In this document: positions 8,456 through 20,242 of the stretch, one piece after another
How positions within the stretch are numbered: the stretch's first letter is position 1
Layout of the letters: every line of letters starts with the position of its first letter
Notes under the pieces: model-generated
What the model was told of the DNA's origin: nothing
Seen by the model: the letters and a program-made list of their open reading frames with translations, nothing else
The model's database searches: none
From: Candidatus Micrarchaeota archaeon
GTDB lineage: Archaea > Micrarchaeota > Micrarchaeia > Burarchaeales > JBDROI01
NCBI GenBank assembly: GCA_043810245.1
Contig: JBDROI010000122.1
Location: 1 to 30,196 of the forward strand
DNA: 30,196 nt
Direction: 5' to 3'
Position numbers and translations under genes: made by a program

Positions 8456-9190
8456 TTATGCAAGCAGTGTATACTTGCTTATGAAAATCTGCGTCTGAAG
8501 AACTACTAGGAATGGAAGCAGAAATACTGCGTTGAGGAACAACAGAATATCTGTTGCGAGATTGTGCGGTGCGATTGCATAGATTATGAGCTGGAGAAGG
8601 GCAAGCACGGCTATTGCAATCAGGCACCAGAAAACAAAATAAAGCGCCTTCTTCGCAACGAGCTGGAGGCTTGTTTGAATCGCACGCACAGGTCTTCGTT
8701 CGTCAATTACAATCGCCGCGGGCGCATAGAAAACTGCGAGCGAAATGATGAATGCCGCAAGTGGTGTGAGTATGCGCTCCAATCCGTATTCAAACGAAAT
8801 GATGCTGACTATCACTGAAAGCAGGAACGCGGAAAGCAGAAGCCAGAAAATGCTGAACGTATATTTTTCTATTCCCGCGAGCACTTCGCTCGAGAGCCTT
8901 GCTCCGCTTCTCTGCGTCTTGATTACCAGATTGACTGCAACGTAGCCAAATGAGGAGAGAATGAGCGAAACGATGTAGGAGAGCACGATGAGCACAATGT
9001 CTGCAACGCCCATCTCGGGAATACTGCCCGTTCTTAAGAAAACAGCTCCGTTCGCAACGAAAGTAGGCATTGGCGAAAAGCGGTGAATTATGACTGCAAG
9101 AAAGAATGAAATAGAGAAAAACGCGAGAATTGCGAGGTTTTTGAAGTATGATTCGGCTGAATGCTTCAGAATTTCAATGAAATCGTCCAT
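8456..9190 (-). CDS. Hypothetical integral membrane protein (about 5-6 TM helices)
   Basis: 244-aa ORF with several long hydrophobic segments and an AGGGG SD upstream. Confidence 0.75.
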   Translation of the reverse strand: MDDFIEILKHSAESYFKNLAILAFFSISFFLAVIIHRFSPMPTFVANGAVFLRTGSIPEMGVADIVLIVLSYIVSLILSSFGYVAVNLVIKTQRSGARLSSEVLAGIEKYTFSIFWLLLSAFLLSVIVSIISFEYGLERILTPLAAFIISLAVFYAPAAIVIDERRPVRAIQTSLQLVAKKALYFVFWCLIAIAVLALLQLIIYAIAPHNLATDILLFLNAVFLLPFLVVLQTQIFISKYTLLA

Positions 9191-9243
9191 AGTGATGCCC
9201 CCTTTCCCGCGTTTCTTTTCTCGGGCTACCTATTTAATATTTG

Positions 9244-10842
9244 CTAGTCTTTCTCGCTCCTGCCAATGTTGAAGATGTCCCACTTCAGCTCCTTTTTCTT
9301 TTCGAGTTCGCTTCCAATCTGTTCAAGAAGCGAAGCTTTTATTCTCGAGTATTTCTCCGGAGCAAGCTGTGCGTTGCCTATTGCGTAGCGCTTGGCTTTT
9401 GTGTTGAAGCAGAAGAGCGCCTCGCTGAGTGCTTCGCAGTTGAAGCAGAAGAGCGAATCCGAGCATTTTGTTGAGCTATCAACCTCGAAGCACCTCATCA
9501 GGTTGAGCGAATCGTAGCAGTTTATGCAGAACTGGGAGTTGAGCAGCCCGTGGGTGCCGAAAAGATATTTGGAGCTGGCTATTGCCGAGCTGATTGCCAC
9601 ATATTCACAGGGCGTATGAGTGCTTGCAATCGCGTAGCCCTTGTAAACATTCGCGGCGTTGAATGTTCTCGGGCTTTTCACTAGGTTGATAGCGATGCCT
9701 CCGCGCGACGCCATTGTGAAATATCCAATTTTAGGCAGAGCACTCGTTATTTTTTCAAGCGAAGTGATTTCATCTTCATTTAGGTGCACTATTTTTCCAA
9801 GCTCCATTCCTTCTGGGTAGGAAATCGCGCGCTTTTCCGGAATTCGCGTGTAGAACCGAGATTCTCTTGCGCCCCTTGAAACAAATGTTGCAGCTCCGAA
9901 TGGGGAGGCTATTTCTTTCAGCGAGATAATGTGCTTTGAAAGCCAGTTTTCGTATTTCGTTATGTCGTTCAGTTCTTTTTTGAGAATGATTTTGCACGTA
10001 GAAGAAAACGCCTTGTCTATGGGCTTAAGCTGGCCTTCTGCTGGAGGAGAAACATGGAGGTCTATATCGTTGGGCTTGGTGTTTGGAACGAATTCGAGAA
10101 TGGAAGGAAACTTCTTCGAGCGCTTCAGCTCCTCCTTAATTTCGCCCAGCAGTTTGGTTTTGAGAGCGAGATATTTTTCTTTTGGCAGTTTGAGGTTGCC
10201 TATGCAGTATGAATTGGCTCTTTGATTAAAGGAGAACATCATGTTGCTGGAGTTGTAGCAGTGGTGCGAGAAGTAGACATCACTGCAGTCTCCTGCGCCG
10301 GATGTTTCAAAGCATCGTTTTAAGCTCGAAGTGCCTACGCACCTTAGAAGGAACTCGCCCCCAATGCCTCTTCCGCACCCAAAGAGGTATCTGCTATTTG
10401 ACTTCACGGAGTGGCACGCGAAGATGTACGAGGCTTGCTGAATATCAACTGAGTTCATCACGTACTGCGAATCCTGTACGCTGTCGGATAATTCCACGAA
10501 GCTGGAGTTTCCAAGAGCCTTGTTTCCGGCGTACTCCCATTTGTCCGAGATTGCCTCGAGCAGAGAGTCCATGTCTTTTATTTCGTTCACGCTGAGAGCT
10601 TCTGCTTTTATTGATGTGTCTTTTATTTCGTCTGCTGAAATGAAGTTTGCAGATTGAGGGTAGTCGTCAACGCTAAAACGCACCTCTTTTCCAGAAACGC
10701 GCGATTTTCTTTTGCCGACAGCTGGGAGATATTCGTTAAGCCATTCTTCGTATTCGCTAAGCTCCCCAATTTCTTCTTCAAATAGAATGCGGCAGGTGCT
10801 TTTCCAAGCTTTGTTGAGGGCTGAGTAAACCGGAGAAGCCAT
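9244..10842 (-). CDS. Hypothetical Cys/Ser-rich protein made of two ~265-aa internal repeats
   Basis: 532-aa ORF. Halves align by eye: KAWKSTCRILFEEEIGELSEYEEWL vs KAFSSTCKIILKKELNDITKYENWL, and SYCIGNLKLPKEKY vs RYAIGNAQLAPEKY. Confidence 0.8.
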   Translation of the reverse strand: MASPVYSALNKAWKSTCRILFEEEIGELSEYEEWLNEYLPAVGKRKSRVSGKEVRFSVDDYPQSANFISADEIKDTSIKAEALSVNEIKDMDSLLEAISDKWEYAGNKALGNSSFVELSDSVQDSQYVMNSVDIQQASYIFACHSVKSNSRYLFGCGRGIGGEFLLRCVGTSSLKRCFETSGAGDCSDVYFSHHCYNSSNMMFSFNQRANSYCIGNLKLPKEKYLALKTKLLGEIKEELKRSKKFPSILEFVPNTKPNDIDLHVSPPAEGQLKPIDKAFSSTCKIILKKELNDITKYENWLSKHIISLKEIASPFGAATFVSRGARESRFYTRIPEKRAISYPEGMELGKIVHLNEDEITSLEKITSALPKIGYFTMASRGGIAINLVKSPRTFNAANVYKGYAIASTHTPCEYVAISSAIASSKYLFGTHGLLNSQFCINCYDSLNLMRCFEVDSSTKCSDSLFCFNCEALSEALFCFNTKAKRYAIGNAQLAPEKYSRIKASLLEQIGSELEKKKELKWDIFNIGRSEKD

Positions 10843-13918: not shown

Positions 13919-14686
13919 CTATAAGCTGCCCATGTTTAACTCGCTAACTGAGCACACGAAATCCGTAAACACGGCCACTGCAGAAAAAAGCTCTTTTTGC
14001 GTTGATTTGCCCAGATTTGACGGCACGGCCATTCGAATTGCAGATAAAAGTGCGTAGAATACTTTAGGATTTTCGTTTGTTAGTACTACTAGGTCTGCTT
14101 CTGTCAGCAAACTCTCAAGGAGCGCCTGAAGAATCCAAGGGCGTTCTGGAATAACCCAACCGAGTTTGTTCGCTATGTGCATGCGCAAATCGGATGCAAC
14201 CTCGTAGTTATAGCCGTAGTTGTAATTGAGAAGTTCGCCTCGGAGAAGAAGAAGCACAGCATTCGCCAAAAGTTCTCTTGTCTCTTTTGGACAATCTTCT
14301 GAGTAGTTGTTTGTATCTGCAAATTTGCTTATTTCGCTTATAAGTTCAATTGCCTTTGTTCTATCTTCACGTGCAGCAATAAAAAATGATTCTATAAGCC
14401 CCGCTAATTTTTTGCCCTGCGGAGTTTGCATTGCGTTTTTAAGCTCTGCCAGCTTTTTAGGAGTTCCTTTCTTCGCTTTAGTTTTAGGAAGCAGAACCTT
14501 CACATCTGATTTTAGTTGGGTTAATTTGCTGCTGAAATCCCCTAGCAGGTCTGTTCCACTGCGCCTGCTGAAATGCGTTGTTAAAGCGCCGAGGCGTCCG
14601 CGCGGTGTTTCATTTACTGAAATTTCGTCTTTTTTTCCGCGCACTTTCGCGCCGTTTGGATTAGATAAAACATTTGCTCTGCTCAT
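13919..14686 (-). CDS. Hypothetical protein, basic N-terminus plus helical domain
   Basis: Long ORF with GGGGTG SD before ATG 14686 (MSRANV). No family recognised. Confidence 0.65.
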   Translation of the reverse strand: MSRANVLSNPNGAKVRGKKDEISVNETPRGRLGALTTHFSRRSGTDLLGDFSSKLTQLKSDVKVLLPKTKAKKGTPKKLAELKNAMQTPQGKKLAGLIESFFIAAREDRTKAIELISEISKFADTNNYSEDCPKETRELLANAVLLLLRGELLNYNYGYNYEVASDLRMHIANKLGWVIPERPWILQALLESLLTEADLVVLTNENPKVFYALLSAIRMAVPSNLGKSTQKELFSAVAVFTDFVCSVSELNMGSL

Positions 14687-14750: not shown

Positions 14751-14900
14751 TTCAGCCCGCAGGGGGTTTGGGCGGTGCCGGACTAAGGGGCAATTCGAAC
14801 GGCGCTCCGTTTGAATGCCCATCAGAACAAGGTGTCGTTCTGATTGGGGGCGGAGCCCCACTTGGGCTGGCAGAAGTAGACGGAATAATAGGCGGGAAGG
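14751..14900 (-). other. Structured non-coding element, copy A
   Basis: Shares four ordered sequence blocks with 20056-20192 and forms several stem-loops (see findings). Strand is given as the one co-oriented with the upstream gene; true polarity is unknown. Confidence 0.6.
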
Positions 14901-14902
14901 GC

Positions 14903-14910
14903 TATTTATA
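14903..14910 (-). promoter_or_regulatory. Putative TATA box (TATAAATA) upstream of element copy A and ORF 14686
   Basis: The minus strand reads CCAAAGG-TATAAATA, which resembles a BRE plus TATA box. Confidence 0.45.
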
Positions 14911-14930
14911 CCTTTGGATTGGCTTTTTTC

Positions 14931-15191
14931 TTATTTGTAGGAGGAATACCACTTTTCGTACTCTTTGTGGTTTTTAAAACATCGCAGTATGTAGAGCGTG
15001 CCGGCTTCAAGGTTGTAAACAAGCCGCGCCTGCTTGGTTACGTCTTCCACGTTGTACGGCAAGCCGAATTTCAAGTGCCTTCTTGGAGGAATTTTTTCAA
15101 GTTTTTGAATGTGCTGAAAGAAGAAAGCTTTTAGAGAACGTTCCATGCCGTCGAGATCTTTTTCAGCGGACTCGGAAAAAAGCACCTGCAT
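14931..15191 (-). CDS. RelE/ParE-superfamily toxin (type II TA)
   Basis: 86 aa. MQVLFSESAEKDL start and RLVYNL...LYILRCF match the RelE-fold pattern. Directly downstream of a small antitoxin-like gene. Confidence 0.75.
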   Translation of the reverse strand: MQVLFSESAEKDLDGMERSLKAFFFQHIQKLEKIPPRRHLKFGLPYNVEDVTKQARLVYNLEAGTLYILRCFKNHKEYEKWYSSYK

Positions 15192-15195
15192 TTTA

Positions 15196-15432
15196 TCACA
15201 GTTTGTACTTTTTTTGCATTTCGGCCAGCGGCTTTGTTTTGAGCTCTCCGCTTTTAATTTTCTGCATTTCAGATGCGATTCCGCGGTTGACGAGCAGAAC
15301 TTCTTCTTCCTCTATGCTTCTTCCATATGCAAGTAAAGCCTGCCTTATCACTTCGGTCATGTTTCCTGCGTAGCCCTTTTCGATGAGTTTTTCAATTATC
15401 TTCTCGTAGGGCGCACCTAGATTAATGTTCAT
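15196..15432 (-). CDS. Ribbon-helix-helix (CopG/ParD-like) antitoxin
   Basis: MNINLGAPYEKIIEKLIEKGYAGNMTEVIRQAL fits an RHH (G.Y...SEVIR.AL) pattern. AGGTGG SD before ATG 15432; 4-nt gap to the toxin. Confidence 0.75.
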   Translation of the reverse strand: MNINLGAPYEKIIEKLIEKGYAGNMTEVIRQALLAYGRSIEEEEVLLVNRGIASEMQKIKSGELKTKPLAEMQKKYKL

Positions 15433-15442
15433 AGAACCACCT

Positions 15443-15473
15443 ATGTATATTAGATGTACATTTAAGTATATAA
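15443..15473 (-). promoter_or_regulatory. TA promoter: TATA (TTTATATA) and imperfect inverted repeat ATGTA-N9-TACAT, possible antitoxin operator
   Basis: The + strand reads atgtatattagatgtacat at 15443-15461 and tatataaa at about 15466-15473. Confidence 0.4.
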
Positions 15474-15502
15474 ACATTGTGCATTAGTTGCTCAAAAAGA
15501 GG

Positions 15503-19080: not shown

Positions 19081-20040
19081 ATGGACATGCAATTACCTTG
19101 GACTGAGAAATACCGCCCGAGAACGCTTGGCGAAGTTGTTGGACAGAAAGAGGTAGTTGAACGGCTGAAAGCGTATGTGAAAGCCCGCAATATGCCAAAT
19201 CTCATGTTTGCAGGAAGCGCGGGAATTGGCAAAACCACGAGCACGCTTGCCCTTGCGCACGACTTGTTCGGAGAAGACTTCAAGCAGAGCATTCTTGAGC
19301 TGAACGCGAGCGACGAGCGCGGGATAGACGTAGTGAGAGGGAAGATAAAGGATTTCGCGCGAACGATGGCGCTTGCAGAAGTTCCTTTCAAAATTATATT
19401 TCTAGACGAAGCTGACGCACTCACGAACGACGCCCAGCAGGCGCTTAGGCGAACCATGGAGATGTACGCGGGCGCTACGCGCTTCATTCTGAGCTGCAAC
19501 TACAGCAGTAAAATCATTGAGCCCATCCAGAGCAGATGCGTTGTTTTCCGCTTCCGCCCTTTGAGCGATGCAGAAGTTGAAGAAACGCTGAAGCAGATTG
19601 CCAAGAAAGAAAATGTTGAGCTGAGCGATGATGCAGTGAAGGCAATTATTTACATTTCAGAAGGAGACATGCGCAATGCGCTGAACGCGCTTCAGGGAGC
19701 CGCTGTTTTCAACAAGAAGATTACAGGAGAAGACATCTACAAGGTTGCTTCGCGCGCTCAGCCCGAAGAGATTTCAAAGATGATAAAGTCTGCTCTTAAT
19801 GGAAGCTTTGTGGAAGCGAGAAAGAAGCTCGATGAAGTGATGCTCAAGTATGGAATGAGCGGGGAAGATGTTCTTCTCCAAGTTTATAAAGAAATAACGA
19901 GCTTGGACATATCGGACGAAATTAAGGTGCAGATGGTTGACCGCGTTGGCGAGTATAATTTTAGATTAGTTGAGGGCGCGAACGAGAGAATTCAGCTCGA
20001 AGCGCTTCTAGCGCAGATTATGCTTTTTGGAAAGAAATGA
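19081..20040 (+). CDS. rfcS: Replication factor C small subunit (no intein)
   Basis: PWTEKYRP, Walker A GSAGIGKT, ELNASDERG, DEADALT, QSRC (SRC motif) and GDMRNALN. Confidence 0.97.
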   Translation: MDMQLPWTEKYRPRTLGEVVGQKEVVERLKAYVKARNMPNLMFAGSAGIGKTTSTLALAHDLFGEDFKQSILELNASDERGIDVVRGKIKDFARTMALAEVPFKIIFLDEADALTNDAQQALRRTMEMYAGATRFILSCNYSSKIIEPIQSRCVVFRFRPLSDAEVEETLKQIAKKENVELSDDAVKAIIYISEGDMRNALNALQGAAVFNKKITGEDIYKVASRAQPEEISKMIKSALNGSFVEARKKLDEVMLKYGMSGEDVLLQVYKEITSLDISDEIKVQMVDRVGEYNFRLVEGANERIQLEALLAQIMLFGKK

Positions 20041-20055
20041 TTTGCAACGAGGGCA

Positions 20056-20192
20056 CCTTCCCGCACTAAAGTGCGGTGTTTCGTCGCCAGCCCAATTCGA
20101 ACCGGCGAACCGTTTCGGATGGGCATTCGAACGAAGCGTCGTTCGAATTGCCCGTTGCAAAACTTTGTGAAAGCACTCGTCCGCGGGCTGAA
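20056..20192 (+). other. Structured non-coding element, copy B
   Basis: Same four ordered blocks as the reverse complement of 14751-14900; multiple hairpins. Confidence 0.6.
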
Positions 20193-20242
20193 GCCCGCGG
20201 TATCCGCGGCGCTTTCACAATGAGAAAGTTGAAAACTTTCTC
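20165..20242. repeat. Nested perfect inverted repeats
   Basis: TTGTGAAAGC (20165-74) / GCTTTCACAA (20211-20) enclose CCGCGGGC-TGAA-GCCCGCGG (20181-20200). They are followed by GAGAAAGTT-GAA-AACTTTCTC (20222-20242). Confidence 0.85.

Follow-up and report, generated by a model that had tools for sequence, protein, structure and literature searches.

The stretch of DNA analysed here, referred to throughout as the window, is 30,196 nt long and lies on C122, a contig of a Micrarchaeota genome of 1.09 Mb (131 contigs, 46% G+C, 88% complete). It contains two structured sequences, copy A on the minus strand and copy B on the plus strand, which were described in the initial annotation as two copies of one element: a multicopy non-coding RNA, a riboswitch-like leader or 3′-UTR element, or a MITE, with a loose likeness to guide RNAs. 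The question raised by the locus is whether region 14751-14900 is a dedicated RNA gene. The evidence points instead to a stack of mobile repeat modules, with A and B both being composites, and this reading is considered quite probable. The two copies and the neighbouring genes are as follows.

14751-14900, minus strand: copy A, between an 86-aa ORF and an orphan 255-aa ORF
20056-20192, plus strand: copy B, 3′ of rfcS
19081..20040, plus strand: rfcS, the replication factor C small subunit gene, with Pfam Rep_fac_C, AAA and lid domains
13919..14686, minus strand: the orphan 255-aa ORF (ORF 14686), downstream of copy A
14931-15191, minus strand: the 86-aa ORF, adjoining copy A

Orthologues of the RFC small subunit, with 74-75% identity, occur in Candidatus Micrarchaeota MAGs. 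ORF 14686 belongs to no Pfam family and has no homologue in the 29 genomes of the order. A synteny comparison for copy A was set aside because of the orphan status of this ORF and because, in the closest relative, the stretch beyond IleRS is missing. The 86-aa ORF had been labelled a toxin gene, a label that finds no backing in Pfam, where the ORF has no match. The 93-aa ORF upstream of it (14931-15477 of the window, minus strand, for the two together) shows CcdA/ParD antitoxin-like matches below threshold (E ~0.1), and the two ORFs could possibly form a toxin-antitoxin pair. No tRNA is found in the window by ARAGORN or by the Rfam tRNA model.

Much of what had been described for the two copies is reproduced. 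Both lie directly 3′ of a stop codon on the same strand, and the element that hosts copy B in fact starts at the rfcS stop. Pairwise alignment recovers the four collinear blocks common to A and B, in the same order. The third block is a 33-nt core hairpin in which A and B differ at 3 positions. Two of these form the loop-closing pair, G-C in A and A-T in B, which is a true compensatory change, as claimed. The remaining substitution is uncompensated: copy A, read on the minus strand, has an A.C mismatch there, which on the plus strand would be a G.U wobble. The core hairpin occurs only at A, at B and in one diverged copy on contig C14, and a blastn comparison with the whole genome gives E = 6e-7. 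Folding confirms that the variable hairpins fold in both copies, and the proposed CAGCCC/GGGCTG pairing (CAGCCC/GGGCUG in RNA) is the outer stem in the minimum-free-energy fold of copy A. The folding z-scores for the two strands are -3.8/-4.0 for A and -6.65/-7.2 for B. Against shuffles, blocks 1 and 2 together are rarer than chance (about 3e-4), as is block 4 (about 3e-3).

The RNA readings of the initial annotation fare less well. Rfam searches of the window, of both copies and of the relatives’ loci give nothing at the gathering threshold and only chance-level matches (E up to 10), and the absence of a match together with equally good folding of both strands speaks against a multicopy non-coding RNA or a riboswitch-like leader. 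The 20/21-nt segments suggested as variable guides have no target in the genome, the best complementary matches being 12-16 nt long (E >=0.1, that is, at least 0.1), and inspection reveals no C/D, H/ACA or omega-RNA-like boxes. These segments lie in a promoter-like module in A and in an inner hairpin of the host element in B. Equal folding on both strands, the lack of an Rfam match and the lack of targets all argue against an RNA gene.

A self-comparison of the genome shows that each flank of A and of B is a member of a different repeat family. Blocks 1, 2 and 4 each fall in a host-specific part, and the host element differs between A and B. In copy A, blocks 2 and 4 make up stem b/b′ of an element termed type A; their counterparts in copy B are a hairpin arm and an inner hairpin loop of an element termed type B. 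Block 1 of copy B, with its variable segment, forms the inner hairpin of type B, which is common to the copies on C62 and C117. By these alignments the two hosts are unrelated repeat families with no common scaffold, and homology between A and B extends only to block 3 and the adjacent “variable hairpin”. The likeness of A and B arises mainly because the same insert is nested in both hosts. The flank matches in blocks 1, 2 and 4 can be attributed only to a shared vocabulary of G/C-rich stems or to module exchange. Since these blocks are rarer than chance, the attribution is partial and does not fully account for what may be exchange of modules, or convergence, between the host families.

The shared insert, termed the micro-element, can be delimited in each copy.

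14787..14850, unstranded: micro-element in copy A, adding ~60 nt net, missing from insert-free host copies and belonging to the bulged-hairpin family found across the genome; hairpin 1 at 14821-14845 and hairpin 2 at 14788-14820, with one bulged base (block 3)
20090..20153, unstranded: micro-element in copy B, a net insertion of 60 nt seen as a gap against C62 and C117; hairpin 1 at 20094-20120 and hairpin 2 at 20121-20153

Copy A is collinear with the copies of its host on C95 and C59 of the same genome and with six from relatives, except for a gap of ~60 nt. The insert is missing from the C95 and C59 copies and from every relative’s copy of the host. Copy B aligns end to end with C62 and C117 apart from a clean 60-nt gap (20090-20149), at which the insert-free copies run uninterrupted through GCCAGC(T/C)CGTTGC. 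Both hosts therefore have insert-free paralogues, and it is the existence of these paralogues that identifies the ~60-nt part as an insertion. A second invaded type-A copy is present on C34.

The micro-element is laid out as two hairpins that overlap by a central tetranucleotide. The hairpin design consists of four G/C pairs, ATT, a variable stem, a loop, the stem complement, AATT with one bulge, and four G/C pairs. The terminal inverted repeats of the insert are perfect in B (10/10) and match at 8/10 positions in A by inspection. Every copy is flanked by direct repeats of 3-5 nt (GCCC, CCCC or GCGC), and the centre is always their complement. The insert in copy A ends in CCCC/GCCC repeats with a complementary GGGC in the centre, while that in copy B has GCCC repeats on both sides and GGGC at the centre. 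Together with the copies on C34 and C91, A and B form a GCCC subfamily; the other flank type is GCGC. A centre complementary to its flanks is not explained by a simple target-site duplication and suggests that the repeats may be part of the element. Either the 4-nt repeats belong to it, or insertion uses homology to its own ends. By inspection, the 3′ arm and G/C foot of hairpin 2 (14788-14802; 20139-20153) resemble a T-loop that runs into the opening bases of this genome’s type-A intron. A palindromised exon-intron junction may have been the origin of the micro-element.

Bulged hairpins of this one design amount to at least 27 units in the genome, compared with 0-2 in shuffled genomes. The units are mostly head-to-head overlapping pairs and occur in both orientations. 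A strict pattern for the GCGC subtype matches 11 times here, 38 and 23 times in the two genomes of the nearest family and 1-4 times in a few other genomes, giving a range of 0-38 for related genomes; the reversed pattern, used as the control, has 0 matches in every genome. Copies A and B are themselves non-coding. Elsewhere, tRNA genes on C14 and C119 have units inside their T-loop introns, and further units lie beside tRNAs on C59, C91 and C93, including in tRNA trailers. Three protein genes of this genome contain double hairpins in frame.

C50:2001-2055: in the TyrRS gene
C53:3160-3221: in the gene for a DJ-1/PfpI protein
C66:1580-1641: in the gene for an NAD-dependent epimerase

The net inserts in these three genes measure 51, 54 and 57 nt, all multiples of three, and comparison with the Pyrococcus TyrRS (PDB 2cyc) reveals a 17-residue insertion exactly at the micro-element. 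The presence of units in tRNA introns, in trailers and in frame within proteins argues for spread at the DNA level, the in-frame part of the argument drawing on these three genes only. Long T-loop introns composed of the same hairpins were also noted in tRNA genes at C14:4050-4285 (L003, 1361-1590), C21:2000-2120 and C119:6647-6900, and hand parsing of the C14 gene gives a tRNA-Arg(CCG) with two introns. Only ~12 tRNAs of the genome score above the Rfam threshold, which suggests that many tRNA genes are hidden by introns.

Among the options of the initial annotation, the MITE proposal alone comes near the findings. The insert has terminal inverted repeats and is multicopy, with presence/absence at comparable sites and in-frame copies elsewhere, all of which fit a mobile palindromic micro-element. 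A parent transposase with matching ends was not found among the Y1 TnpA and TnpB proteins looked at. Y1 TnpA is absent from this genome and from the other two hairpin-rich genomes, the genomes that do have it being poor in hairpins; TnpB is represented once, on C84, and is unconnected with the hairpins. Mobilisation by an IS200/IS605 or REP-RAYT system was rejected because no Y1 transposase occurs where the hairpins abound and there is no tagged head. It is proposed that the micro-element spreads as DNA, either by a mobilising enzyme or by break-repair or template-switch copying. It would prefer sites that match its own 4-nt ends (GCGC or GCCC) and would persist where it is harmless: in introns, other repeats, spacers and the surface loops of proteins.

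The same hairpins could instead be domesticated sites, such as protein-binding palindromes, transcript-end stabilisers or terminators comparable to bacterial REP, for which mobility is secondary. Such a role would account for the position of A, B and several units directly after genes or tRNAs, and the stop-codon adjacency of A and B would also fit a 3′-end function. It would likewise account for the conservation of the hairpin base (four G/C pairs, ATT/AATT, one bulge) across differing stems. However, units inside coding regions and deep in introns are a misfit for a role at gene ends, the counts vary from 0 to 38 among related genomes and no orientation rule is apparent, which makes domestication an unlikely primary explanation.

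Splicing offers another account, in which the ~60-nt insert is a nested bulge-helix-bulge (BHB) intron removed by the splicing endonuclease, and the hairpins are intron-building cassettes as opposed to DNA transposons. The endonuclease of this lineage accepts relaxed motifs (PMC3239211), the same hairpins are abundant in real T-loop introns, and the 3′ arm of hairpin 2 has the resemblance to a T-loop joined to the first type-A bases described above. Nevertheless, a pair of 3-nt bulges with 4-bp spacing cannot be drawn at the insert boundaries, which offer one 1-nt bulge only. The in-gene lengths in TyrRS, DJ-1/PfpI and the epimerase are those expected if the inserts are translated, a regularity that would be unneeded if they were spliced, and the units occur in both orientations. 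Removal by splicing is judged very unlikely, and spread of the micro-element as DNA is the account followed here for both hosts.

The host of copy B is the type-B repeat.

20037..20223, plus strand: type B, a two-hairpin repeat with ATGA at both ends, defined by a regex and BLAST census and by the C62/C117 alignment; the stem of hairpin 1 is 20041-20049 with 20153-20161, and hairpin 2 is 20165-20219
C14:8605, C44:902, C55:3485, C62:5714, C73:10566, C108:3590, C108:8763, C117:2530, C120:6338 and C124:10172: the other type-B sites

There are 11 copies of type B in the genome. The rfcS stop (20038-20040) serves as the 5′ TGA of the element in the window, and the micro-element is positioned in the 3′ arm of the first hairpin. 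At the other end, a long ORF begins with the 3′ ATG in 5 of the 11 copies, S6e-like and Pelota-like genes included. BLAST does not find type B in relatives, and the element is absent 3′ of rfcS in the closest Micrarchaeota MAGs, which also argues against an RNA gene. The two pattern matches in viral contigs are both chance. From these searches type B appears to be a lineage-specific repeat. It behaves like a small insertion element targeting ATGA, and its ATGA ends suggest either insertion at ATGA or a role at translation starts. Two other readings of type B were rejected: a small ORF is in frame in one copy only, and no BHB boundaries can be drawn on inspection. A C/D-box or K-turn interpretation of the UGA...UGA ends is improbable, as there are no internal boxes. 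A family of 150-250-nt repeats with terminal inverted repeats was observed in another genus (G021; L005, L008, L010 and L012), and it has in common with type B here a hairpin with a UGAA loop (CCGCGGGC/GCCCGCGG stem). Copy B is a type-B repeat, different from the host of copy A, that received the same micro-element.

Copy A is itself divided into a promoter-like module and the type-A element.

14873..14925, minus strand: promoter-like module, with a TATA-like box at 14903-14910 followed by block 1 and the “20-nt variable segment”; identified by a match to C123
14751..14872, minus strand: type-A element, assigned by covariance model R1 and by alignment with insert-free copies of this genome and tRNA-embedded copies of relatives to a BHB-intron family conserved in Micrarchaeota, whose usual site is the tRNA T-loop (59/60)
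14869-14872 with 14776-14779: helix a/a′ (UGCC/GGCA) of the type-A element
14864-14869 with 14753-14758: stem b/b′ (CAGCCC/GGGCUG)
14847-14859: G/C hairpin
14762-14786: near-invariant core
14751-14754: 3′ UGAA relic

The promoter-like module is ~85% identical over ~52 nt to C123:11274-11340, upstream of an unrelated gene, and the similarity stops at the start of the type-A intron-like element. By this comparison it is a separate repeat module that lies outside the structured element. A TATA-box promoter and leader of ~52 nt is in this way duplicated 5′ of two unrelated genes. Along the minus strand, copy A consists of this module, then a free-standing type-A intron copy, with the micro-element nested in the G/C hairpin of the latter.

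The type-A family is best described from the relatives, where it interrupts tRNA genes in the T-loop (three genes in G016, one in G014). The intron is ~85 nt long, structured and conserved in sequence, with a near-invariant core of ~29 nt common to several families. In the pre-tRNA fold of a relative, the 5-bp T-stem is followed by a 4-bp helix of T-loop bases 54-57 with the 3′ end of the intron. Each strand has a 3-nt bulge, the 5′ one leading straight into helix a-a′. As modelled, this is a full, canonical helix-bulge-helix-bulge-helix motif, which places the intron at 59/60. The covariance model detects type A patchily, in 6 of the 29 genomes of the order and in five families. A pattern built on the near-invariant core retrieves 113 metagenome stretches, and viral contigs contain no type-A core.

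Helix a-a′ covaries. Across 69 distinct sequences there are no unpaired cells at its two variable pairs, with GC/CG/AU/GU/UA at one and UA/AU/CG at the other, and the smaller set agrees. The search pattern put no constraint on the two a′ positions, so this covariation is not a product of retrieval. It would be explained if a-a′ is the intron-side helix needed by the endonuclease. The helix order a, b, hairpin, a′, b′ had prompted an HDV-like double-pseudoknot model for type A. This was rejected by inspection, as helix a is only 4 bp, the loop has no conserved P1.1 partner and a-a′ is explained instead as the BHB h′ helix.

Model R1 matches copy A at 14758-14795 despite the insert, and the a/a′ pair UGCC/GGCA obeys the covariation rule of the family. 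The fold of copy A has stem b/b′ only: there is no exon-side helix, and the junction of two 3-nt bulges separated by 4 bp is not seen. The UGAA half alone of the 4-bp splice helix survives, within block 4. Copy A does not interrupt a tRNA, as no tRNA exons are present and its 5′ flank is the promoter-like module. No direct repeats were found around it. A split or 3′-half tRNA was also considered and rejected by inspection, the bases beyond the UGAA relic forming no credible T-stem or acceptor. Copy A is read, at the level of sequence, as an old, free-standing stray copy of the intron. Because it has neither the exon-side 4-bp helix nor a tRNA body, it is apparently no longer spliceable, and it may persist as a neutral remnant in the leader or spacer that separates the 86-aa ORF from ORF 14686.

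Free-standing copies are common in metagenomes. Among the 72 unique type-A copies with enough flank, 25 are embedded in a tRNA T-loop, and the other 47 are free-standing. In 13 of these 47, and in none of the 25 tRNA-embedded copies, direct repeats 11-60 nt long stop no more than 2 nt from the 5′ end of type A. Eleven of these repeats score >=15, above every shuffle, and several copy the start or end of a gene such that an intact gene is kept. Free-standing copies flanked by repeats include L063, L071, L075, L084, L088, L091, L110, L115, L116, L127 and others. The type-A copy on C34 has a weak 11-nt direct repeat. The 11-60-nt footprint may fit an excised intron or its cDNA captured at staggered breaks, or template switching. 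It is conceivable, though doubtful at present, that type A is a BHB tRNA intron in the process of moving, and that the free-standing copies, with copy A an old one, are insertions into ordinary DNA. If this were true, it would be the first mechanistic trace of archaeal tRNA intron spread, and the nested double hairpins would be building blocks that travel along.

Nesting takes other forms in the family. In a further genus, a free-standing type-A copy (L042; G010:C38, about 9150-9300) begins at the stop codon of a gene and contains, at another internal position, an unrelated double hairpin of ~53 nt. In five metagenome loci (L056, L086, L097, L118 and L129), a diverged type-A-like element has a type-A element in place of its hairpin, which suggests that the family inserts into itself.

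With both hosts described, the idea that A and B are copies of one functional structured RNA, whether an sRNA, a 3′-UTR or leader element or a guide-like RNA, is scarcely credible: it can draw on the four shared collinear blocks, the one compensatory loop-closing pair, the strong folds (z -3.8 and -6.65), the location of both copies after stop codons and the rarity of the flank blocks, but the insert-free host members assign blocks 1, 2 and 4 to two different elements, the opposite strands fold equally well, no Rfam family matches, the variable segments have no complementary targets, and the same hairpin design recurs in both orientations and within coding sequences.

The stack of mobile modules has wider implications. 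The gain of tRNA introns in archaea is an open question, and PMC4090602 leaves the mechanism of the transposition inferred for the Thermoproteales open. The present lineage provides a handle on this question, as it has one conserved T-loop intron family that occurs both in tRNA genes and loose, often with long flanking duplications, and whose covarying helix can be assigned to the splice motif. It also has a second, smaller palindromic element, which is lodged within introns, within other repeats and, in frame, within essential genes. For annotation there is a warning, in that composites of repeats mimic structured-RNA genes and many tRNA genes in these genomes are missed by standard finders.

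No papers on these Micrarchaeota repeat families were found in a literature search of incomplete coverage, and the modules are best compared with systems described elsewhere. Like Rickettsia palindromic elements and MITEs (PMC10969869), the micro-element is small, palindromic, geneless, non-autonomous and multicopy, and paralogues differ in having it or not. As is known for Rickettsia palindromic elements, members of this family are also inserted in frame in protein genes. It differs in being archaeal and shorter (51-60 bp as against ~100-150 bp; PMC10969869), in having two overlapping bulged hairpins with a centre complementary to the 4-nt flanks, and in its frequent location in introns. With the REP/RAYT system (PMC3733652) it shares imperfect palindromes of 25-35 nt with an extrahelical base, often arranged as inverted pairs. 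Unlike REP, its heads are G/C tetranucleotides followed by ATT and not GTAG or CGTC, the hairpin-rich genomes have no Y1 transposase, and the units also occur inside genes.

For the type-A intron, one close comparison is Candidatus Micrarchaeum acidiphilum ARMAN-2, which has 59/60 T-loop introns and a broad-specificity epsilon2 endonuclease that accepts relaxed motifs (PMC3239211). The two have the phylum, the intron position and BHB-type junctions in common. The published ARMAN-2 introns are short (13 nt) and are not described as a repeat family (PMC3239211), whereas type A is ~85 nt long, structured and conserved in sequence, and its cleavage is predicted. Another is the transposed tRNA-intron families of the Thermoproteales, for which “transposition” at the DNA level has been inferred with the mechanism left open (Fujishima et al. 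2010, as summarised in PMC4090602). These families consist of near-identical BHB introns in different tRNA genes (PMC4090602). Type A follows this pattern, with three tRNAs in one genome and 25 tRNA-embedded metagenome copies. It differs in belonging to the Micrarchaeota phylum, in its fixed T-loop 59/60 site and ~29-nt near-invariant core, and in that about two thirds of its copies lie outside tRNA genes, many of them with direct repeats of 11-60 nt.
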